Source of the DNA: an uncultured Leptospirales bacterium
Lineage (GTDB): Bacteria; Spirochaetota; UBA4802; UBA5550
Direction of reading: 5' to 3'
DNA: 29,540 bases
NCBI GenBank assembly: GCA_964396355.1
Contig: CAYNFB010000011.1
Coordinates: forward strand, 1 to 29,540
The notes under the pieces: model-generated
What the model was told of the DNA's origin: nothing
The model's database searches: none
The model's input: the letters and a program-made list of their open reading frames with translations, nothing else
Shown here: positions 3,121-26,725 of the stretch, piece by piece
How positions within the stretch are numbered: the stretch's first letter is position 1
Layout: each line of letters opens with the position of its first letter
Program-made: the position numbers and the translations under genes

Positions 3121-4056
3121 TTAAAATCTATGCCTGGCAATTATTTCTTCAGTTTTTATGGTGCTGTCCTTCTTCCTGTCGATCTGGCTGAGATAGACTC
3201 CCAATATTACAAAGGCTGATGCGGCGTACTGTATGTGGTTCATCTTCTCATTAAGAAGGAGCCAGCCCCAGAATACTGCAAATACCGGAAGCAGGTTGGT
3301 GAATGCAGCTCCCTTGCTTACGGCGATTTTGCTGATTCCGTAGTTAAACAGTCCGTAGGCGCCCAGAGAGATAAATATTCCCATATATAAAATGGTAAGA
3401 ACAGGAAGTAACTCAAAGGTTTGAGGCATGCCGAATCCCGGATGATCGATGAACAGTCCGGGTAAGAAAAAGAGTGTACCGGTGAAAGACTGAACAGCTG
3501 TGAGGAAGAATGGGTTGTATCTTTCACTGAGCTTTTTTAATACTATGGTATAGCCGGTTGCAAATATCATTGCAATGAATTCAAGAGAGTTTCCAAATAC
3601 AGGATTGGGTGCTGATTCCGATACATCGCTGTAAAGACTCAGAACCGAGGCTCCTGCCGCTGCGATGAGGAAGCCTGCAACAGTTTTGTATGAAACTCTT
3701 TCACCAAGCATGAAAAATGCAGTAAGCCCCACGAGCAGAGGGAGCATTGATGTTATCATGCCGGCCTGTGACGATGTTGTATAGTTCAGAGCCCAGGCTT
3801 CAAACACGAAGTAGAGGCAGGGCTCGAAGAGTGCCATGAGAATGAGATATTTAATATCCTCTTTGCGGAAGACATTTTTCGGATTTAATTTTTTTATGAA
3901 GAAAAGAAAGACTATCGATGCTACAAAGAGCCTCCCGAAAATTACGAATACCGGGGGATATACTTCAAAAGTTGATTTCAGGGCTACAAAAGATGTGGAC
4001 CAGAGAATCATTGCTCCAAGGAGAGCCGCGGTTGCCTTGTAGGACTGTGTGTTCAT
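3121..4056 (-). CDS. DMT/EamA-family transporter
   Basis: About 10 hydrophobic segments; LWSTSFV, ALNYTTSSQAG, LGERV, LLNEK motifs. Confidence 0.9.
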   Translation of the reverse strand: MNTQSYKATAALLGAMILWSTSFVALKSTFEVYPPVFVIFGRLFVASIVFLFFIKKLNPKNVFRKEDIKYLILMALFEPCLYFVFEAWALNYTTSSQAGMITSMLPLLVGLTAFFMLGERVSYKTVAGFLIAAAGASVLSLYSDVSESAPNPVFGNSLEFIAMIFATGYTIVLKKLSERYNPFFLTAVQSFTGTLFFLPGLFIDHPGFGMPQTFELLPVLTILYMGIFISLGAYGLFNYGISKIAVSKGAAFTNLLPVFAVFWGWLLLNEKMNHIQYAASAFVILGVYLSQIDRKKDSTIKTEEIIARHRF

Positions 4057-7320: not shown

Positions 7321-7746
7321 ATGAGGCTTTCAACCAGATCAAGATACGGCATGCGTCTTATGGTCGTCCTTGCTTCGAAAGAGGGAGGAGGGCCGGTATT
7401 CCTGAAGGAAATTGCAGGTTCTGAAGGGATCTCGGAAAAGTATCTCGGTCAGATAATTATTCCGCTCAAGGCCAGGGGGTTGCTTCTTGCATTTCGCGGC
7501 GCCAGAGGCGGTTATACACTGAGCAGGTCTGCAGATTTGATCACTCTTCGTGAAATAGTCGAGACTCTCGAGGGAGATCTGAAACTCGTTAACTGTGCAG
7601 ATGAGCCCTCCTCGTGTACAAGAAATGAGTTCTGCAGTGCAAGAGGAATATGGAATGATATGAGCACTGTTCTTACTGATTTTCTTGAAAGTCATACTCT
7701 TGCTGATCTTCTGGGTGATAAAGAATGCAGCAGGAAGAGAGCCTGA
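7321..7746 (+). CDS. Rrf2-family transcriptional regulator (IscR-like, three Cys)
   Basis: STRSRYG, ISEKYLGQI, RGARGGYTL; C-x6-C-x5-C (NCADEPSSCTRNEFC). Confidence 0.9.
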   Translation: MRLSTRSRYGMRLMVVLASKEGGGPVFLKEIAGSEGISEKYLGQIIIPLKARGLLLAFRGARGGYTLSRSADLITLREIVETLEGDLKLVNCADEPSSCTRNEFCSARGIWNDMSTVLTDFLESHTLADLLGDKECSRKRA

Positions 7747-7763
7747 ATAAGGGGAATTTATTT

Positions 7764-8504
7764 ATGAAGAATTTTGTTAAAAGTGAAGAAAAAGATTTTA
7801 TTGTCGGGACCGGCCTTTCCGGATTTACTCTCGGGGTTACAGGAAGAGAGATAAACCATACTGATTATGCTCTGCCGGGGAAAGAGGTCAGAGCCTCAGA
7901 CAAGGCTTTGATTTCCCGTGTGACGGGACTGGAAAGTAAAAATATTGTCATGCTTGATCAGGTTCACGGAGACAGAATAATCGAAATGACTGATCTGCCG
8001 GACCGGGATCTTCCTTCAGCAGGAGAGGCAGACGGATTTATTACTAATACCAAAGGTCTGGCTCTTGTTATAAGGACCGCGGATTGTGTTCCGGTATTTA
8101 TATATGACAGCAGAAATCAGGTTGTCGGTGCGGTTCATTCCGGGTGGAAGGGAACTAATCTGAATATAACCGGCCGGTGCATAGAGTTGATGAAAAATAA
8201 GTACGGCTCTCAGGGAGAGGATCTTAAGATCTTCATACTTCCCTCAATCGGTCCGGATATGTATGAGGTGAATGAGGATGTGGCGCGTTTTTTCCCGGGT
8301 GAGAGAATAGACCGGGATGGAAAAATATTCGTAGATCTCTGGGCCAATATTGAAAAATCCTGCAGGGCCGAGGGGGTGCCTCAGGCGGGGATATACAATC
8401 CCCGTATATGCAGCAGAACCAGTCATGATGATTTCTTCTCTCACAGATTCGGTGATGCAGGGAGAAATTTAAACTATGCATTCATGGCTGACCATAAGAT
8501 TTAG
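7764..8504 (+). CDS. pgeF: YfiH/PgeF (laccase-domain, purine nucleoside phosphorylase) family protein
   Basis: QVHG, ADGFIT, TADCVPV, HSGWKG, PSIGP..YEV, FFSHR; RBS GGGG before ATG 7764. Confidence 0.9.
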   Translation: MKNFVKSEEKDFIVGTGLSGFTLGVTGREINHTDYALPGKEVRASDKALISRVTGLESKNIVMLDQVHGDRIIEMTDLPDRDLPSAGEADGFITNTKGLALVIRTADCVPVFIYDSRNQVVGAVHSGWKGTNLNITGRCIELMKNKYGSQGEDLKIFILPSIGPDMYEVNEDVARFFPGERIDRDGKIFVDLWANIEKSCRAEGVPQAGIYNPRICSRTSHDDFFSHRFGDAGRNLNYAFMADHKI

Positions 8505-8590
8505 AGGTTGCTTTTTTAAGAATATTAACTGATTATATTATATGTATCAGGCATTTTATAGAAGAAAAGAAAATATTGCGGGGTATTACA

Positions 8591-9424
8591 ATGTGGGAAT
8601 ATACAGATAAAGTAAAGGATTTATATACAGACCCGGTCAATGTGGGGAAGATGGAAGATGCAGACGGTGTGGGTCACGTGGGCAGCGTTGTCTGCGGTGA
8701 TGCACTGACTTTGTACATCAAGGTCAGGGACGGTGTAATAGTTGATTCAACCTTCGAAACATTCGGATGCGGAAGCGCAATCGCCTCATCATCTGCCCTT
8801 ACCGAAATGGTAAAGGGCAAAACTATTGAGGAGGCCGAGAAGATAACAAATCAGGATATAGTGGAGTATCTCGGCGGACTGCCCGAGCAGAAAATTCACT
8901 GTTCTGTAATGGGCTCCGAGGCTCTTGAAAACGCCATTGCAAACTACAGGGGAGAGGAGCCGGCAGTTGAGGATGAGCCGGAAGGTGAAATGATCTGTCA
9001 CTGCAAAAGTATTACCGATGTTGATCTGAAAAAGGCTATTAAAGATAAGGGTATTGTGAATATAGAGGACTTAATCGCAGAAACCGGTGCAGGAAGCGTC
9101 TGCGGAAGCTGTATACCCCGGATGGAGGACATCCTCGATGAGGAGAAGTGGAAGCCTCAGGAGCCTGCTGAGGAATTTGAAAGAGGCATGACAAACATCC
9201 AGAAGATCAGAAAAATTGAGGATCTCATAAACAGTAAGATAAGACCGGCCCTTAAGCGCGATGGAGGGGATGTGGAGCTTGTCGATGTAGTGGATGATCT
9301 GGTCGTGGTTAAACTTCATGGTGCATGTTCAACATGCGTATCGGCCAATGATACTCTTCAGCATTTCGTTCAGGAGGAACTGCGCGCGGCAGTTTCAGAC
9401 AAGATTATAGTGAAGCATATATAG
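8591..9424 (+). CDS. nifU: Three-domain Fe-S scaffold NifU (IscU + BFD [2Fe-2S] + Nfu)
   Basis: VCGDAL, TFGCGSAIAS, KIHCS; CHC...CGSC; GACSTC. ATG 8591 is preferred to TTG 8576. Confidence 0.93.
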   Translation: MWEYTDKVKDLYTDPVNVGKMEDADGVGHVGSVVCGDALTLYIKVRDGVIVDSTFETFGCGSAIASSSALTEMVKGKTIEEAEKITNQDIVEYLGGLPEQKIHCSVMGSEALENAIANYRGEEPAVEDEPEGEMICHCKSITDVDLKKAIKDKGIVNIEDLIAETGAGSVCGSCIPRMEDILDEEKWKPQEPAEEFERGMTNIQKIRKIEDLINSKIRPALKRDGGDVELVDVVDDLVVVKLHGACSTCVSANDTLQHFVQEELRAAVSDKIIVKHI

Positions 9425-9434
9425 GGGAAGTCTA

Positions 9435-10628
9435 ATGGAAAAACAGATATATCTTGATAATAATGCCACAACAATGGTGTCGCCTGAAGTACTCGAGGCT
9501 ATGCTTCCCTTCTATAAAGATAAGTACGGCAATGCATCCAGCATGCACTTCTTCGGCGGACGCGTTGCCCGAGATATCGATGTAGCCAGACAGCATGTTG
9601 CGGATCTTATCGGAGCAGACCACGATTATGAAATTACATTTACAGGAAGTGCAACAGAGAGTGATAATCTCGCTATAAGAGGAATTACTTCATATTTTAA
9701 GGATAAGAAACACGTTGTTACATCTACAGTCGAACATCCGGCGGTTCTCAGTCTTTGCAGGCAGCTGGAAAAGGAAGGTTTCAGAGTTACCTATGTGCCA
9801 GTGGATTCCAACGGTGTTGTAGATCTTGAAATTCTTAAGGAATCTGTTAATGACGAAACCGCACTGGTTTCCATAATGCATGCGAACAATGAAACAGGCG
9901 TCATTATGCCTGTTGAGGAAATAGGCCGATTCTGCCGCGACAGGGGAGTTATATTTCATGTCGACGGAGTTCAGGCCGCAGGGAAGATACCTGTTTATGT
10001 AAACAGTATTAATTGTGATTTCTATTCAATCTCGGCTCATAAATTTCACGGTCCCAAGGGAATGGGCGCTCTCTACGTGCGTAGAGGTTCCCGTATGAGG
10101 CCCATGATTTTCGGCGGCCATCAGGAAAAGGGAAGACGGCCGGGAACTGAAAATGTTCCGGGTATTGCCGGAATGGGAAAGGCTGCAGAGCTTGCAATGC
10201 TTCACCTTAAGGATATGGACGGAGTCGCCAACCTGAGAGACAGGCTTCAGGAGAACATCCTGTCCACGGTGGGAACATCATCTGTCAATGGAGGAGACGT
10301 TCTGCGTACTCCAAATACTGCAAATATATCATTTGAATTTATTGAGGGTGAGTCCATACTTCTGTATCTTGATCAGAAGGGCGTTTTTGTCTCAACCGGT
10401 TCGGCATGTTCAACAGGGTCTCTTGAGCCCTCTCATGTTTTACGGGCAATGAATACTCCATTTTCAAAAATTCACGGTTCCATAAGGTTCAGTCTAAGCA
10501 GGTATACAACTGCAGAAGAAATCGATTATACGCTGAAAGTAATACCTGGTGTCATCGAGACACTTCTTAACATCTCTCCGTTCTGGGATAATGAAACAAA
10601 AGTCGGAAAGATAATGCATCAGTCATAG
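9435..10628 (+). CDS. nifS: Cysteine desulfurase NifS
   Basis: YLDNNATT, SAHKFHGPKG (PLP Lys), GSACST...SHVL; directly follows nifU. Confidence 0.95.
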   Translation: MEKQIYLDNNATTMVSPEVLEAMLPFYKDKYGNASSMHFFGGRVARDIDVARQHVADLIGADHDYEITFTGSATESDNLAIRGITSYFKDKKHVVTSTVEHPAVLSLCRQLEKEGFRVTYVPVDSNGVVDLEILKESVNDETALVSIMHANNETGVIMPVEEIGRFCRDRGVIFHVDGVQAAGKIPVYVNSINCDFYSISAHKFHGPKGMGALYVRRGSRMRPMIFGGHQEKGRRPGTENVPGIAGMGKAAELAMLHLKDMDGVANLRDRLQENILSTVGTSSVNGGDVLRTPNTANISFEFIEGESILLYLDQKGVFVSTGSACSTGSLEPSHVLRAMNTPFSKIHGSIRFSLSRYTTAEEIDYTLKVIPGVIETLLNISPFWDNETKVGKIMHQS

Positions 10629-13707: not shown

Positions 13708-14115
13708 TTTGTTGACATTTTGTTCCAGGTGATGCATATTGCGGGGGATGACCTGAATTGAAAGATAATAGAAGTATTGAAAATAATCTCTTATTCTATC
13801 TTTTCCCCGGTTCATACCTGCGATGCTCTTAGGAGTCTCAACTTCTGTGAACAAGATGCTGCTCGTTAATCTCATTTTCTTTGCTCTGGCCGGGTTTCTC
13901 TACTGCGCTGCAGTTGCCGCCTTTCCTATCATGTGTATATAATGCACAGGTGCAGATGATTTATCTGTTATGATAATAATATCGAGGTGTTAAAAATGCT
14001 GAAAAATTGCAGATCAGCAGCTTTTTTTTAAGTAAAAAGCTTGTAATTTATTTTAATTTATTCTATTGGATATCAGCTCAAATCAATGGAGCATTTTTTA
14101 TTAAGGATGGTTTTT

Positions 14116-14352
14116 ATGAAAAAAATCATTGTTCTTCTCATATCAATTTTATCTGTTGCAGTTCTTTTGACAGCTGCTGAAACATCAGGTAAAAAAGCGG
14201 TTAAATCACAATCCCTCAAAGCTTGTAAAATTGAATTAAGAAAATGCGTTAAAGAAGCCAAAAAAAGCCCTAAAGGTGAAAGAAAGGCTAAAGTCGCTGA
14301 ATGCAGGAAAACTTTTATAGACTGCCGTACTGAGTGTAAAAAAACAAAATAG
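14116..14352 (+). CDS. Small secreted Lys/Cys-rich cationic protein
   Basis: AAGGA RBS; signal peptide MKKIIVLLISILSVAVLLTA; mature part has 16 Lys, 4 Arg and 5 Cys. Confidence 0.7.
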   Translation: MKKIIVLLISILSVAVLLTAAETSGKKAVKSQSLKACKIELRKCVKEAKKSPKGERKAKVAECRKTFIDCRTECKKTK

Positions 14353-14392
14353 TTAAAAAAATAATTTTAGTGTATTAGTTTTTATTTTGCGT

Positions 14393-14431
14393 GAGGGACT
14401 GTCTGAAAAATTAATCAGATAGGACAGTCTC
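14393..14431. repeat. Imperfect inverted repeat (terminator or IS-end/REP-like scar)
   Basis: GAGGGACTGTCTGAAAAA...TCAGATAGGACAGTCTC; GACTGTC/GACAGTC arms. Confidence 0.5.
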
Positions 14432-14726
14432 TTCCGTTGTTAGAATATAAAGGTTTTACAGACCTGTAAATGGACAATGTAGTAATACCTCTTATTCTGT
14501 AAATTAATTTTAACTGTCTCACCTTGTATCTCTGATAATAATTCTAATACTGTCTTCAGAAAATATATAACTACAACTACTTATAAAGAGAGATTAATAT
14601 TTAATGCGGCAGAGCTGCCATTAGGATATACCTTGCTATAAATAGCTTACAGGCTATGCTTAATTGGTGTTGACTTTTTGCCATTTTTGATTTTTCATGA
14701 TGAAAAAGTTTTACCGGGGGGATAAT

Positions 14727-18853: not shown

Positions 18854-19291
18854 ATGAATGTAACTCAGCTTTCCGCCTTTGTGTCGAATAAGCCCGGTCA
18901 TCTTCAGAAAGTGCTTAAGGTTCTGGCCGATCAGGACATTAACATAATAACTCTGACCATTGCAGAGACTTCAGATTTCGGTATCCTGAGGATGATTGTA
19001 AATGATCCCGAAAAGGGACTGGCGGCTCTCAAGGAAAATCATATCACATGTTCAACAACGGATGTTCTTGCTCTTGAAATCAGCGATACTCCCGGATCGC
19101 TGTTTAAGGCGCTGGATGCATTTGCCGATATGAATCTGAATATTGAGTATATGTACGCCTTTACAGAGAAGCGGCATGGAAAGGCCGTTATGATTTTCAG
19201 ATTTGAAGATATTGAAGAAGCCAAAACCGCTCTTGACGGTAAGGGCTATAATATTGTTAGAAAGATAGATATAATCGGAGATAATAAATGA
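18854..19291 (+). CDS. Tandem ACT-domain protein
   Basis: QLSAFVSNKPG...INI, DFGILRMIV, DTPGSL...NIEYMYAF; typical paaK neighbour. Confidence 0.9.
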   Translation: MNVTQLSAFVSNKPGHLQKVLKVLADQDINIITLTIAETSDFGILRMIVNDPEKGLAALKENHITCSTTDVLALEISDTPGSLFKALDAFADMNLNIEYMYAFTEKRHGKAVMIFRFEDIEEAKTALDGKGYNIVRKIDIIGDNK

Positions 19292-20844
19292 CAAAGAAAG
19301 TGATGTTGGGAAATGAGGCAATCGCAAGAGGAGCCTGGGAAGCCGGATGCACTGTTGCAGCAGGATATCCGGGGACTCCAAGTACGGAGATTCTGGAGAC
19401 AATTGCCAGAGACTACCGCGAAATCAAGTCGCAGTGGTCGCCTAATGAGAAGGTTGCCCTGGAAGTTGCGGCAGGAGCATCCATTGCCGGAGCAAGATCT
19501 CTTGCAACTATGAAACACGTGGGCCTCAATGTAGCCGCAGATCCTCTCTTTACATTTTCATATACCGGAGTAAACGGTGGGTTTGTCATTATAAATGCAG
19601 ATGATCCCGGAGCCTGGAGTTCCCAGAACGAACAGGATAACAGACATCTGGCAAGGGCCGCCAAGGTTCCCATGCTTGATGCATCGAGCCCCGAGGAGGC
19701 CAAAGAGTTCACCAGACGCGCATTTGAAATCTCCGAGCAGTTTGACCGGCCGGTCATCGTGAGAATTACAACCAGAATTGCTCATTCTCAGGGATTGGTT
19801 GAGCAGGGTGAACGGGAGAATGTTCCACTAAAGGAATTTATCAGGGATCCTAAAAAATATGTAATGATACCCGCCCATGCAAGGCCTAAACATAAATTTA
19901 TTGAAGAGCAGCAGGTGAAGCTTACTGAATTTTCCTGTAATGCAGGTTTCAACAGAATTGAAATGGGGAATAAGAAGCGCGGAATTATAACAAATTCAGT
20001 GGCATATCAGCACGTAAAGGAAAAATGCCCCGATGATTCAGTTCTAAAAATCGGAATGGTATGGCCCATGCCTGATGATCTTATCCGGGAATTTGCATCA
20101 CAGGTGGAGGAACTCTATGTTGTTGAAGAACTTGATCCTTTCATCGAAGACTATGTGAAAGCAATGGGCTATAAGGTTACCGGTAAGGACATTATCCCTA
20201 TGTGCGGAGAGCTGACTCCTGAAATCATAGACATGGCTCTGAACGGAAAATCTCCTGAAAGGGCACTGCCTGATTACGATACAGAGCTTCCGTCAAGACC
20301 TCCGGGACTCTGCAAGGGATGCCCTCACTCCTTCGTCTTCAATGTTTTGAAGAAACTTGATCTGACAGTTAACGGTGATATAGGCTGCTATACTCTTGGG
20401 GTTCTTCCTCCCTATTCCGCCATGCATACTCAGGGATGTATGGGTGCGAGTATAGGAATGCATCTGGGTTTTGAAAAAGCCAGAGGTGAGGAAATGGCTG
20501 CCAATTCGGTTGCCGTTATAGGAGACTCAACATTTGTCCATTCAGGAATAACTCCGCTTATTGATATGGTCTACAACAAGGGTACCGGAACTGTGCTGAT
20601 TCTAGATAACAGGGTAACTGCAATGACGGGCCAGCAGGACAATCCGGCTACCGGAGTTACACTGATGGGAGAGGAGACTCATGAGCTGAATCTTGCTCTT
20701 CTCTGCGAATCTGTGGGAGTTAGACGTGTTGTTACAGTTGACCCTAAGAATACAGAGGAGTTTGAAAGGATTGTGAAGGAGGAGGTTGCAGCCAGAGAAC
20801 CTTCAGTTATAATATCAAAAAGAAAGTGCATACTGAAAAAGTGA
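19288..20844 (+). CDS. iorA: Indolepyruvate:ferredoxin oxidoreductase alpha subunit (short form, no C-terminal ferredoxin domain)
   Basis: GNEAIARG, GYPGTPSTE, MKHVGLNVAAD, CKGCPH, GDIGCY, GDSTFVHSG TPP motif. Confidence 0.93.
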   Translation: MTKKVMLGNEAIARGAWEAGCTVAAGYPGTPSTEILETIARDYREIKSQWSPNEKVALEVAAGASIAGARSLATMKHVGLNVAADPLFTFSYTGVNGGFVIINADDPGAWSSQNEQDNRHLARAAKVPMLDASSPEEAKEFTRRAFEISEQFDRPVIVRITTRIAHSQGLVEQGERENVPLKEFIRDPKKYVMIPAHARPKHKFIEEQQVKLTEFSCNAGFNRIEMGNKKRGIITNSVAYQHVKEKCPDDSVLKIGMVWPMPDDLIREFASQVEELYVVEELDPFIEDYVKAMGYKVTGKDIIPMCGELTPEIIDMALNGKSPERALPDYDTELPSRPPGLCKGCPHSFVFNVLKKLDLTVNGDIGCYTLGVLPPYSAMHTQGCMGASIGMHLGFEKARGEEMAANSVAVIGDSTFVHSGITPLIDMVYNKGTGTVLILDNRVTAMTGQQDNPATGVTLMGEETHELNLALLCESVGVRRVVTVDPKNTEEFERIVKEEVAAREPSVIISKRKCILKK

Positions 20845-23587: not shown

Positions 23588-23627
23588 ATAATAAGGACAA
23601 GGGGCTTCAGCCCCTTGTCCTTATTAT
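23588..23627. terminator. Bidirectional terminator between convergent genes
   Basis: Perfect 18-bp stem ATAATAAGGACAAGGGGC-TTCA-GCCCCTTGTCCTTATTAT. Confidence 0.85.
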
Positions 23628-23629
23628 CT

Positions 23630-26251
23630 TCAGTCTTTCTTGTTTTTTATTTCTTTATACCACTCAGAGTGATGTTTTTTTGCCCACTTTTCGCTGACCA
23701 TTCCGTCTACCATGGTTCTCCATGTGCCGGGATTCGCAAGAGTTCCAAGATACGCATGTCCCAGAATCGTAGCAAGAAAAAATACCGAACCGAGTCCGTG
23801 AATAGTCGATATCAGACAGGTAAGAGTGAGAGGCAGTGATGATTTAAAGATCATCAGTATACCGGTTACACCCATTACTGCCGTGAGAATCAGTATCCAC
23901 CAGAATGCATATTTCTGACCTGCATTGAGTCTTCCGGCGGGAGCCTCGACATTATCGTCTCTGGTCAGGTATCCGCCCTGGACCTCCATCCACTGCTTAT
24001 CATAATCCTGGAATTTTGCATCTTTCACCCAGAGCTTGTAACTGTAGATGCTTGCTGCAATAAAGATCAATCCATAGACTATATGCCAGTTTACTGCAGA
24101 CTGCTGATTGTCAAAGAAGAAGCCCAGCATTGCGGCATTATTGTAGAAGAAGATTCCTCCGGTAAATGCCAGCCCAATGAATGTAATCATCCTTGCAAAG
24201 TGAGTCCATCTTTCTGCGATGGTGAATCTCTCTATGGTGGCCGGCTCAAGAAGCAGATCGGCGCCCTTTGGCCCCCTTCCTGTATAGTGAATCATCAGGA
24301 AGAATCCTATCACAATGAGAAATATGCTGGCGTATGGAGTGACTATCGCCTGATGAAACATGTTCACGTAGAAGGAGAACGGGTTGCAGCCAATCAGTCT
24401 TCCGTTTCTTGTGAACTCAGGGACACCCTCTTCATTCCATAGTCTTGTAAGAGTGTAGTTGCGAAATACCTGCCCGTCTAGCCCGTGACAGTCCAGACAT
24501 CCGTCGGCTCCAAGAGCTTCGCTGGCTGGAGCTACATTGTGATTTATGTTGAAGGCCTCGGCCCTGCCCACCCACGTTGTATCATCTTCACCGATTAGCT
24601 CATCACTCTCATTGAGATGATAGAGTTTTCCAAAGAAATGCATCTGAGGATCAACCTTTGTAAACCTTTTGTTGTCCTTCAGTGTTTTCTTCAGTGTAGA
24701 GAGAAAGAGCTTAATCTCTTCTTTCTTATACAGTTTCGGCTTTCCTGCAAAGGGCCCTTTCTTATATGGCTGTTTTGTTATTTTGCCCTTCACCATATTG
24801 TAGGCCTTCTTAATCTCCTTCATGAAGAGAGGGTAGTATATGCCGTCGCCGTTTCTGTTTGAATATATCAGACCTGCCGGAAATGAATTTACCGGTTCAA
24901 TTTTATGCGTCTTGTGGTTCCTCGCATATCTCGGGATCCATTCATTATAGGCCGGAATCGGAAGCAGTTTTGATTTAATTTTCTCTTCCAGCGTGGTGTT
25001 AGCCTGGTTCTTAAATTTTCCGAAGTTAATCATGTCACCGGAAGTTACATCAAATGTTGATCCTCCGTTAGCATTAAGGCGTGGGATGTGACATGTTTCA
25101 CAAGTCAGTTTTTCAAGGTGATTGGGCCGTATAGTCTTGTGTTTAGGCCTGGTCGCGCCCATTACTCCTTTCTCGTGACATTGTTTACACGTGAGCATCC
25201 CTTTTCCGTCCAGATCATCCCGTACGGTGCTTACGTTTTCATTTCCCTTGGCAAAGTTATGCTCCTTGTCAATTGAGGGATGGCAGTGAACGCATTCCAG
25301 TCCGCCCATGTTGTGAATATCGTGATTCTTCGGATCATTCCAGGAGAAGCCTCTCTTCTTTCTGTCAGAGAAAGCATGACAGAAAGTACAGTTTCTTGAT
25401 GAGGGGGGGTAGTCCAGATTAACTGCAAGTTTTCCGTCCTCATTGAAGAGACGTTTATTATAGGTTACAGCAGGAGTTACTCCCGACAGGACCTTGCTTT
25501 TTTTGCCATTCTTGTCGGTAATCTTAGCAACAGTACCGCGTACAATTCCGATTCCCGATGCCTGAATTGCCGCCCATTTGAAATTCCATAACTTCAGCTG
25601 TTTGTTTCTTTCCTTAAAATTATAGCCGTCAATATGACATATGAAACAGTCGGCCTCTACAACACCGGACTTGTCCCAGTGGCTCTTGAAGTAATCACCG
25701 TCCAGTGATTTCCTGAGTGAAGGATTTGCCTTTAATGTTTTATCGAACCTCTTTCCGTCTCTGTCAAATTCCAGTCCTCCGCCTCCGGGGTGGCATCCTC
25801 CGCAGCCCGGATTCCCGATCTTATTCAACGATCCTGCCTGTACAAACTGGAAAACAGTTATGTCAATTTCATCCGCTGTCTTATTCTTTTTTTTCGCCAA
25901 CTGGCGAAAGGAAGGGGGTCACATCTTCCCCATCATACCGTCAGACAGCACCCAGGGTTTGTCCTTGCTGAACGTATCGCTTATTTTATCCCAACCCTGC
26001 TGGAAGTGGTAGCCTTTCGTGATTTCATCATAGTTATGGCAGCCCTTAGCTCCGCAGGTTTTTCTTGTGCTCATGACTTTTCCTGCATTCAGTCCGGATA
26101 TCGGATTGATTATTTCTCCTGTTTCAGTCCTGAGATGAAAGGGGGGGCATTCCCTGAATTTAATCTGTGCACTCAGATCAGAAAAATAAAACACTCCGGC
26201 AATAATAAATGTAATAGAAGCCGATAGCTTCAAATACGACGGCTTTCTCAT
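23630..26251 (-). CDS. Putative selenocysteine-containing octaheme cytochrome c fused to FdnI-like cytochrome b (873 aa with UGA read-through)
   Basis: ORFs 25919..26251 and 23630..25900 are in frame and joined by TGA + PPSFRQ. AGGAGG RBS and signal peptide occur only on the first part. One CX4CH and seven CXXCH; C-terminal His-bearing TM helices (RWTHF, NWHIV, GRLNAGQK, TIHG, GHAY). Confidence 0.85.
25884..25918 (-). promoter_or_regulatory. Candidate bacterial SECIS element
   Basis: UGA-CCCCCUUCC-UUUCGCC-AGUU-GGCGAAA: 7-bp perfect stem, loop starts 16 nt after UGA, G at the second loop position. Confidence 0.75.
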
Positions 26252-26725
26252 GCAAATACCTCCTTTTATCAGAAATGAATTTTATCTATATGTGGTCTTT
26301 TAAAAATATTAAATCCGGAGGTAGTATTCAAAAAATATTCATCTGATTAGTTTTTTGTTATTATTATTTTGAATAAAAAAACGTAACAACTTAGCTGTTC
26401 AGCATAAGAATTTGTCAGGATTGCTCTGCTTTTATGATTAGAGATGTTGTTTTTTTATTACTTACTGACAAAGAAATAAAAAAGTTAGTCAAAACGAATT
26501 GTATTGTGAAGAGGTAGTTCCTTTCATACAATTGGATACGGCCACCGTAAGAAAATCAATACTTGAATGCTGTGTATTAAAAATGAGTTTGGCGGTTGAT
26601 TGTAATTTTGGTAATTTTATTGCTACAGACCTGAATTCAAGGCGGGTTCTTTATGACGAAGTATTTGTCTTTGTTTTTCACTCGGCCTGTTCGGCGGGGG
26701 TGAGGAGCAATATATTTTAATTCTT

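Follow-up and report, generated by a model that had tools for sequence, protein, structure and literature searches.

A probable in-frame selenocysteine codon in an octahaem cytochrome c–cytochrome b fusion of an uncultured Leptospirales bacterium and its relatives

Introduction

Bacteria insert selenocysteine (Sec) at an in-frame UGA that is soon followed by a short hairpin, the selenocysteine insertion sequence (SECIS), in which SelB recognises a loop G-U sequence-specifically. Examples are the element of E. coli fdhF and the hairpin bound by Moorella SelB. Multihaem selenoproteins are already known, and a 2026 review lists three cytochrome-type selenoprotein families, namely ExtKL (NF040886), a GSU2204-family CXXCH protein (NF041027) and a GenBank-annotated TIGR04315 octahaem cytochrome, WP_331457571.1 (PMC13188914). 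MccSep (ExtKL, GSU2937-2936) of Geobacter sulfurreducens, the subject of a 2026 paper, is a soluble five-haem selenoenzyme that reduces polysulfide; its Sec, U325, lies beside a haem ligated by Cys239, and its gene was once annotated as two (PMC13510729). Here we examine a 29,540-nucleotide stretch of DNA from an uncultured Leptospirales bacterium (assembly GCA_964396355.1, contig CAYNFB010000011.1), hereafter the window, in which two minus-strand open reading frames (ORFs) separated by one UGA appear to form a single gene for a membrane-anchored, Sec-containing octahaem cytochrome.

Two further systems are relevant to this protein. CbcL (GSU0274), also from Geobacter sulfurreducens, is an inner-membrane menaquinol oxidase that combines a dihaem cytochrome b with a nine-haem cytochrome c (bioRxiv 10.1101/2022.08.31.506072). 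Octahaem tetrathionate reductase (OTR) has its catalytic haem in an N-terminal module (bioRxiv 10.1101/2022.02.24.481543).

An initial annotation of the window had proposed that the UGA encodes Sec and that standard annotation would split the gene. The first proposal is supported by a conserved TGA, by Cys counterparts, and by hairpin nucleotides that are fixed beyond what the peptide needs. Based on sequence comparison, positions 26251 to 23630 of the minus strand are very probably one gene whose UGA is decoded as Sec. The product apparently represents an undescribed selenoprotein family that uses standard bacterial Sec recoding. In the literature, of which our coverage was incomplete, MccSep and the 2026 selenoproteome review were all that came up, and we found no account of an octahaem/cytochrome b fusion that contains Sec. 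The protein would be the fourth multihaem cytochrome family among known selenoproteins and the first fused to a quinol-oxidising cytochrome b.

Organization of the gene

The minus strand holds a 110-residue ORF (25919..26251) and a 756-residue ORF (23630..25900) that share a frame, with a single TGA between them at 25921-25919. The codons around this stop read GGT ATG ATG GGG AAG ATG TGA CCC CCT TCC TTT CGC CAG TTG GCG AAA. The elements of the gene are:

23630..26251, minus strand: whole gene when read through its one internal TGA, with 873 codons before the stop TGA at 23632-23630; its product comprises signal peptide, octahaem c domain, linker transmembrane (TM) helix and FdnI-like dihaem cytochrome b
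26259..26265, minus strand: AAGGAGG, a Shine-Dalgarno sequence read directly from the DNA, with 7 nt between it and the ATG at 26251
25919..25921, minus strand: in-frame UGA, codon 111, proposed to encode Sec; TGA is conserved at this codon and TAA or TAG never occurs there
25892..25909, minus strand: SECIS-like hairpin with stem UUUCGCC/GGCGAAA and loop AGUU, from a predicted fold and comparative codon fixation

The shared frame had been described in the initial annotation, and its other readings of the region also held up on inspection. TGA serves as the ordinary stop of 11 of the 24 window genes, including iorA, rrf2, M48, lepA and the cytochrome gene itself. The downstream ORF, taken to begin at TTG, has no signal peptide and seven CXXCH motifs, and the sequence before the TTG at 25900 contains nothing comparable to AAGGAGG. 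The haem count of seven is correct for this part and required refinement for the whole: the 110-residue part carries a motif of its own, CGAKGCH, of the CX4CH type, which brings the joined protein to eight haem sites. Relatives that are full length and have a sense codon in the UGA column are colinear with the read-through frame. Further window genes joined by an in-frame TGA were considered and rejected as same-frame ordinary neighbours by chance or as spurious antisense ORFs.

As had been predicted, standard annotation divides the gene. In the source metagenome scaffold (ENA ERZ23495372) the gene caller split it in two, and the closest homologues in a protein search (52-64% identity), RefSeq entries included, cover about 70% of the query and begin at 'L/MAKKKN', just past the UGA column. 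More distant homologues are full length. The in-frame TTG at 25900-25898, inside the hairpin, is the false start picked by gene callers, and because this start is part of the SECIS, pipelines consistently yield a plausible downstream ORF. The truncated homologues are named 'cytochrome b/b6 domain-containing protein' (the RefSeq entries) or 'formate dehydrogenase subunit gamma'; the latter name is misleading, as no FdnG or FdnH is encoded nearby and the domain is fused to a cytochrome c. A conserved gene of many anaerobic lineages is systematically mis-annotated as a small 'hypothetical protein' together with a truncated 'formate dehydrogenase subunit gamma' or 'cytochrome b/b6 domain protein'. 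Corrected annotation restores the signal peptide and the first haem, and with them changes the predicted location and function.

Conservation of the UGA codon

For comparison, 80 related genomic loci were fetched and the region upstream of each match was read in frame. Together with the window, 50 of these loci form a set of 51 sequences with TGA at codon -7 from 'LAKK'. The stop at this codon is always TGA, never TAA or TAG, and L080 has its TGA at -9. The TGA stands in the context GMxGK[F/M/H/Q/L/W]-U-PPSFRQLAKK, with M before the U in the window and F in most Desulfobacterota, and upstream of it the same frame continues into a conserved N-terminal domain (signal peptide, haem motif 1, GYHFQQGW). 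The signature TGA-N9-TTTCGCCAGTTGGCGAA occurs once in the window, where none is expected by chance, and it matched 78 metagenome contigs exactly, 76 of which carry the same gene in the same frame. In all, the TGA and the adjacent hairpin are conserved in more than 120 related genes.

Carriers of the TGA belong to at least seven phyla. The closest to the window are Leptospirales metagenome-assembled genomes (MAGs) with 75% and 66% identity. Others come from many orders of Desulfobacterota, including the cultured Fundidesulfovibrio agrisoli, Desulfoluna limicola and Desulfoprunum benzoelyticum, and from Eisenbacteria, Delongbacteria, Chloroflexota, Deferribacteres and Abyssobacteria. Taken together, cultured carriers comprise Desulfoluna limicola, Fundidesulfovibrio species, Desulfoprunum benzoelyticum and Desulfonema ishimotonii. 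Genomes with the TGA form include those of D. limicola ASN36 (NZ_AP024488.1), F. agrisoli SG106 and D. benzoelyticum DSM 28570, a Delongbacteria chromosome (OY760505.1) and the Leptospirales MAGs CAZHNW01 and CAZVFJ01. A nearly identical protein, with the same N-terminus and the same length of 826 residues, is encoded by an Acidobacteriota MAG (L027, JBKICO010000152.1) and by Fundidesulfovibrio agrisoli SG106 (L028); a mis-binned MAG contig is the likely cause, or else a very recent transfer. The loci L061, L066, L069 and L073 ('MFD' long-read MAGs and one other) carry read-through genes that downstream frame disruptions, probably indels introduced in assembly and not biology, shorten to 385-647 residues. 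Homologue P0005 has a garbled C-terminus.

The remaining 29 of the 80 loci have a sense codon at the column: Tyr in 19, Cys in seven, and Ser, Thr or Ile in the others. The alignment suggested by the initial annotation thus returned UGA and Cys at this position. Its expectation of Cys counterparts was correct for those seven loci; as the main alternative Cys gives way to Tyr, so the column is not a classic strict Sec/Cys pair. Tryptophan, named at the outset as a residue that would speak against Sec, is found in none of the relatives, and a miscalled TGG is therefore not supported. One of the Cys loci, L076 (JAHJTV010000101.1, near locus position 3980), has TGT at codon -7, keeps TAT CGC CAG TTG GCG AAA and is sister to the Sec-type L067. 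It is the only non-TGA locus to retain the hairpin element; Sec seems to have given way to Cys here recently, leaving a fossil SECIS.

In comparisons of the window with six relatives, the proportion of synonymous differences (pS) is 0.8-1.0, which is saturated, and that of nonsynonymous differences (pN) is 0.07-0.2 on both sides of the UGA. Since pN is far below pS on both sides, both halves are translated in this frame. In a distance tree, several deep branches hold Sec-type genes and the Tyr, Cys and Ser forms fall into one derived clade, a pattern that fits single-nucleotide steps from TGA to TGY to TAY. The occurrence of Sec, Cys and Tyr at one column provides a natural variant series for studying what selenium contributes.

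The hairpin downstream of the UGA

The hairpin is 18 nt long, starts 9 nt 3' of the UGA and overlaps the codons for F-R-Q-L-A-K. It was first noted as a perfect 7-bp stem with a loop beginning 16 nt past the UGA and a G at loop position 2. All of these features are present at 25909-25892, the loop has 4 nt, and the element is predicted to fold. No curated RNA family covers it, as an Rfam scan of the window at gathering thresholds gave no match.

Because the FRQLAK peptide is conserved with or without the TGA, the choice among synonymous codons isolates selection at the RNA level. The element T[T/A]T CG[C/T] CAG TTG GCG AA[A/G] is fixed in 50 of 51 TGA genes and present in one of 29 non-TGA genes. 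TGA genes use TTT in 48 of 48 Phe codons, CGC or CGT in 51/51, and CAG, TTG and GCG in 51/51 each, whereas hairpin-compatible codons in non-TGA genes number 5/18 for Phe, 14/27 for Arg, 23/29 for Gln, 7/28 for Leu and 7/29 for Ala (Fisher tests, p = 4e-10, 9e-8, 0.0016, 1.6e-13 and 5.8e-14, respectively). Within the TGA group, codon choice is free at the flanking Pro, Ser, Asn, Asp and Ile, so the fixation is not due to recent common ancestry.

Changes within the stem mostly preserve it: 12 of 15 keep pairing by wobble (AAG ten times, AGA once, CGT once), and the sole change that breaks a pair, one outer pair, is TAT in three loci. Neither the G nor the U of the loop ever varies, although the synonymous codons CAA and CUG would permit it; this fits sequence-specific recognition by SelB, as judged by analogy. 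The base directly after the UGA is C in 49 of 51 genes. In L080 (Candidatus Abyssobacteria QZKI01000001.1, near locus position 3974) the sequence is GGRW-U-TPAPIFRQLAKK, with the TGA two codons further upstream of the same hairpin sequence; the spacing between UGA and hairpin therefore tolerates 6 extra nt.

Protein architecture

The read-through product, of about 97 kDa plus haems, divides into the following parts:

26168..26251, minus strand: signal peptide of the Sec (secretion) type, residues 1-28 (MRKPSYLKLSASITFIIAGVFYFSDLSA/Q), seen in the sequence with a putative cleavage site
26147..26149, minus strand: codon for Cys35, a candidate distal haem ligand or Sec partner
26036..26056, minus strand: haem motif 1, CGAKGCH (CX4CH), seen in the sequence; CXXCH in most relatives
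24332..26167, minus strand: periplasmic octahaem cytochrome c domain, about residues 29-640, with eight motifs and weak Pfam and NCBIfam multihaem matches
23639..24235, minus strand: FdnI/HydC-type dihaem cytochrome b domain, residues 673-871 (TIGR01583, PF01292, 1KQF_C)

Hydrophobic N-termini equivalent to the window signal peptide are present in all complete relatives. Haem motifs start at residues 66, 150, 202, 288, 320, 355, 384 and 585, which places Sec111 between motifs 1 and 2. Motif 1 has the CX4CH form (CG-AKG-CH) in the window, L001, L002, L004, L022, L027, L028, L046, L054, L065 and L080 and is CXXCH in the rest; the two-residue insertion arose or was lost several times. The haem domain comprises about 610 residues, or about 9 kDa per haem, within the range linked to catalytic cytochromes (PMC7096707).

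A linker TM helix at about residues 636-657 precedes the cytochrome b domain, which scores 132.7 bits against TIGR01583 (cut-off 115.85) and 80.6 against PF01292 (E = 1.6e-22, cut-off 30.1). FdnI (1KQF_C) was the sole match in a single-sequence search of the Protein Data Bank (PDB) with the window protein; it aligns end to end with the C-terminal ~200 residues (E = 2e-19), with His opposite His at four positions. We take these four to be the FdnI haem ligands, whose positions were reportedly given by Jormakka and colleagues in 2002.

The haem domain is more remote from known structures. A family-profile search of the PDB gave weak NrfA matches over haems 5-6 only and none at the Sec column. 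A Foldseek search with a predicted model of homologue P0015 returned OTR (1SP3) as the only significant PDB match (E = 9.8e-8, probability 1.0), with a TM-score of 0.31/0.44, a root-mean-square deviation of 10 A and 14% identity. The match of the model to 1SP3 and the weak NrfA profile similarity make the haem domain a distant branch of the NrfA/HAO/OTR superfamily.

Column 35 is Cys or His in all relatives. Cross-tabulated with the UGA column, Cys35 occurs with Sec in 44 and His35 with Sec in 7 of the 51 Sec-type genomic sequences that could be scored, and His35 with Tyr in 19, every Tyr-type gene having His; among the metagenome matches the ratio of Cys to His is 65:7. Six invariant His residues outside the motifs, H633 (89%) and column 35 make up eight candidate distal ligands for the eight haems.

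Weighing of the interpretation

Several results weigh against the reading of this locus as a Sec-containing reductase. In an NCBIfam scan no sel gene was found among the 26 window ORFs, lepA showing the expected weak GTPase-domain similarity to selB and nothing more, and the fetched flanks of relatives likewise yielded no sel genes. ARAGORN gave no match in the window, and tRNA-Sec was also looked for and not found in 51 Sec-type genomic loci and 78 metagenome loci. The folding energy of the hairpin is unremarkable on its own (z = -1.2 versus shuffles), and no compensatory double changes are seen, as the hairpin is invariant; its significance rests on comparative data, not thermodynamics. At the UGA column the commonest alternative residue is Tyr rather than Cys, and Ser, Thr and Ile are found too; some lineages do without the Sec residue, whose chemistry may not be that of a classic redox Sec. 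Seven Sec-type genes have His instead of Cys at column 35. The AlphaFold2 model, though confident (pLDDT 84, pTM 0.82), depicts P0015, which is a Cys-type homologue and not the window protein. Lastly, conservation of the gene neighbourhood is weak, and in the window the gene is on its own.

The model chosen by gene callers and RefSeq is that of two real genes, in which the UGA would end a 110-residue exported monohaem peptide and the TTG, 18 nt downstream, would restart translation of a 756-residue protein. Translation can legitimately start at TTG, and every TGA-bearing locus keeps this codon, yet it is fixed because it forms part of the hairpin loop and stem. It lacks a Shine-Dalgarno sequence, its product would have seven c-haem motifs and no export signal, in 29 relatives a sense codon at the column makes the protein continuous, and the stop is always TGA, which is not required of a simple terminator; we consider two genes most improbable. 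A nonsense mutation, or a TGG or TGY miscalled in a single contig, deserves thought because the window comes from a short-read metagenome assembly and one base change would restore Cys or Trp. The same TGA, however, recurs in 50 further genomic loci and, from unrelated samples, in 76 metagenome contigs, no relative has Trp, both halves are under strong purifying selection, and the hairpin nucleotides are selectively kept only where the TGA is present. Given these comparative and selection data, a pseudogene or sequencing error is scarcely credible and we exclude it. The same data argue strongly against two separate genes and against genome-wide recoding. Read-through of the UGA might also occur by near-cognate insertion of Trp or Cys, or through a change of code in the lineage, the hairpin acting as a stimulator. 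The hairpin is indeed short and shows no compensatory covariation, but it looks as a SelB site should, with a short stem rich in G+C that closely follows the UGA and an invariant loop G and U. Of the 24 window genes, 11 use TGA as their ordinary stop, carriers span many standard-code phyla, and interchange with Cys codons (TGT, TGC) is what usually marks Sec. Such read-through is very unlikely.

To our knowledge, known Sec residues are almost always catalytic, and since they mark catalytic sites the family probably acts as a terminal reductase and not as a wire. It is nonetheless conceivable, if on balance unlikely, that Sec is inserted and the protein is only a CbcL-like electron-transfer quinol oxidase, in which Sec or residue 35 tunes the haem potential as a ligand. 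The architecture matches that of a dihaem b and multihaem c menaquinol oxidase, no conserved partner or substrate-related operon surrounds the window gene, and the column tolerates Tyr, Cys, Ser, Thr and Ile. What speaks for an enzyme is the high peptide-to-haem ratio, a property linked to catalytic cytochromes (PMC7096707), the fact that the only structural relative is the enzyme OTR, the presence of a DsrE-family gene downstream in 10 loci, and the catalytic Sec of MccSep (PMC13510729).

Proposed mechanism and function

If the UGA is decoded as Sec, translation would start at the ATG at 26251 with its strong Shine-Dalgarno sequence, and the hairpin at 25909-25892 would recruit SelB with Sec-tRNA(Sec) at the UGA, so that Sec is inserted as residue 111 and translation runs on to the real stop at 23632-23630. 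The signal peptide would export the ~610-residue haem domain to the periplasm, where eight c-type haems would be attached, and the linker helix and the four-helix FdnI-like domain would hold the protein in the membrane and carry two b-type haems. Menaquinol would be oxidised at the FdnI-like domain and its electrons handed by way of the b haems and then the c haems to a catalytic site in the N-terminal module. Polysulfide, tetrathionate, selenite or another chalcogen compound may be the substrate that Sec111 attacks there as a nucleophile. Sec111 would probably act beside a haem with residue 35, a Cys in most Sec-type proteins, as its distal ligand, an arrangement resembling the Sec and His/Cys-haem site of MccSep.

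Our specific proposal, based on sequence and on analogy, is a tentative one: the protein may be a menaquinol-oxidising reductase with Sec at its active site. Going a step further, and more speculatively, the family could be a widespread, unrecognised single-polypeptide menaquinol:chalcogen reductase in which Sec and a Cys-ligated c-haem of an OTR-like octahaem domain cleave S-S or Se-O bonds (of polysulfide, tetrathionate or selenite). Its active site would have an origin independent of MccSep, and the fused cytochrome b would link it directly to the quinone pool. If true, it would be a missing module of sulfur or selenium respiration in Desulfobacterota, Chloroflexota, Spirochaetota and other anaerobes.

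Gene neighbours and other features of the window

A gene of the DsrE/DsrF family (PF02635, E = 3e-19, 120 residues) lies directly downstream on the same strand in 10 Sec-type loci, which hints at sulfur transfer. An example is L069:6313-6675 (+), about 160 nt past the cytochrome gene; the gene is absent from the window. An all-against-all BLAST of flanking ORFs found no strongly conserved operon, and the only other recurring neighbours are a sigma-54-type regulator and a histidine kinase, in about 12 loci each. In Desulfobacterota these are a sigma-54-type response regulator with a PAS domain and an apparent histidine kinase, named from sequence only (e.g. L009:250-1632 (-) and L013:644-1807 (+)).

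A scan of the window for promoters and terminators gave counts near chance. It included one candidate next to the cytochrome gene:

23599..23615, minus strand: terminator-like hairpin just past the real stop, between convergent genes, from a consensus scan only

Elsewhere in the window, rrf2, pgeF, nifU and nifS form a cluster at 7321-10628 (+), an ordinary iron-sulfur assembly locus without selenium-specific genes, and this nifS has weak similarity to the selenocysteine lyase SclA. About 1 kb at 13708-14696, between the genes for an SNF2-family helicase and a 4Fe-4S-domain protein, holds no ORF of at least 100 residues on either strand. The iorA gene at 19288-20844 (+) matches positions 2-534 of the 595-position IOR_alpha model with 646.7 bits (cut-off 650.9); it shares 19 nt with iorB and seems to lack the usual C-terminal segment.

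Comparison with known systems

Like the SECIS elements of E. coli fdhF and Moorella, the window hairpin is short, lies within the coding region immediately 3' of the UGA, and combines an upper stem rich in G+C with an invariant G-U in its apical loop. Unlike them it is very small and has no bulged U, and its binding by SelB is putative. The cytochrome b domain aligns end to end with FdnI, the gamma subunit (cytochrome b556) of E. coli formate dehydrogenase-N, and exceeds the TIGR01583 cut-off; it differs from FdnI in being fused to a cytochrome c through an extra TM helix, with no FdnG or FdnH nearby. In overall plan the protein resembles CbcL, which also joins a periplasmic multihaem c and an FdnI/HydC-type b in one polypeptide with no FeS, flavin or molybdopterin partner. 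This likeness is one of architecture; CbcL has nine haems instead of eight and no reported Sec, and it is regarded as an electron-transfer module, not an enzyme.

The protein belongs, as judged from its sequence, to none of the three listed cytochrome-type selenoprotein families. The NCBIfam scan of the read-through protein gave no match to NF040886 (E <= 0.01) or NF041027, and the match to TIGR04315 is weak, at 41.9 bits against a cut-off of 375 over haems 3-7. OTR of Shewanella oneidensis (1SP3, TIGR04315) likewise has eight c-haems, and the Sec of the window protein lies in the N-terminal module, which in OTR holds the catalytic haem. OTR is soluble and has no cytochrome b, and the relation between the two is distant rather than one of family membership.

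MccSep/ExtKL differs from the window protein in having five haems instead of eight and a Sec on a C-terminal Ig-like domain instead of near the N-terminus, and it is a soluble tetramer, whereas the window protein is a membrane cytochrome b fusion with a predicted, distantly OTR-like fold. There are also parallels. Both are periplasmic multihaem c cytochromes in which an in-frame UGA with a SECIS-like hairpin behind it provides the one Sec, both had their gene first annotated as two, both place a Sec-Pro in a Gly-containing loop, and in both Cys-type relatives are nested among Sec-type ones. Each also has a conserved Cys outside the haem motifs, a proven haem ligand in MccSep that could be one here. 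MccSep is thus an experimental precedent for Sec next to a Cys-ligated haem (PMC13510729), and its use of such a site in sulfur respiration makes a parallel role for the present family testable.

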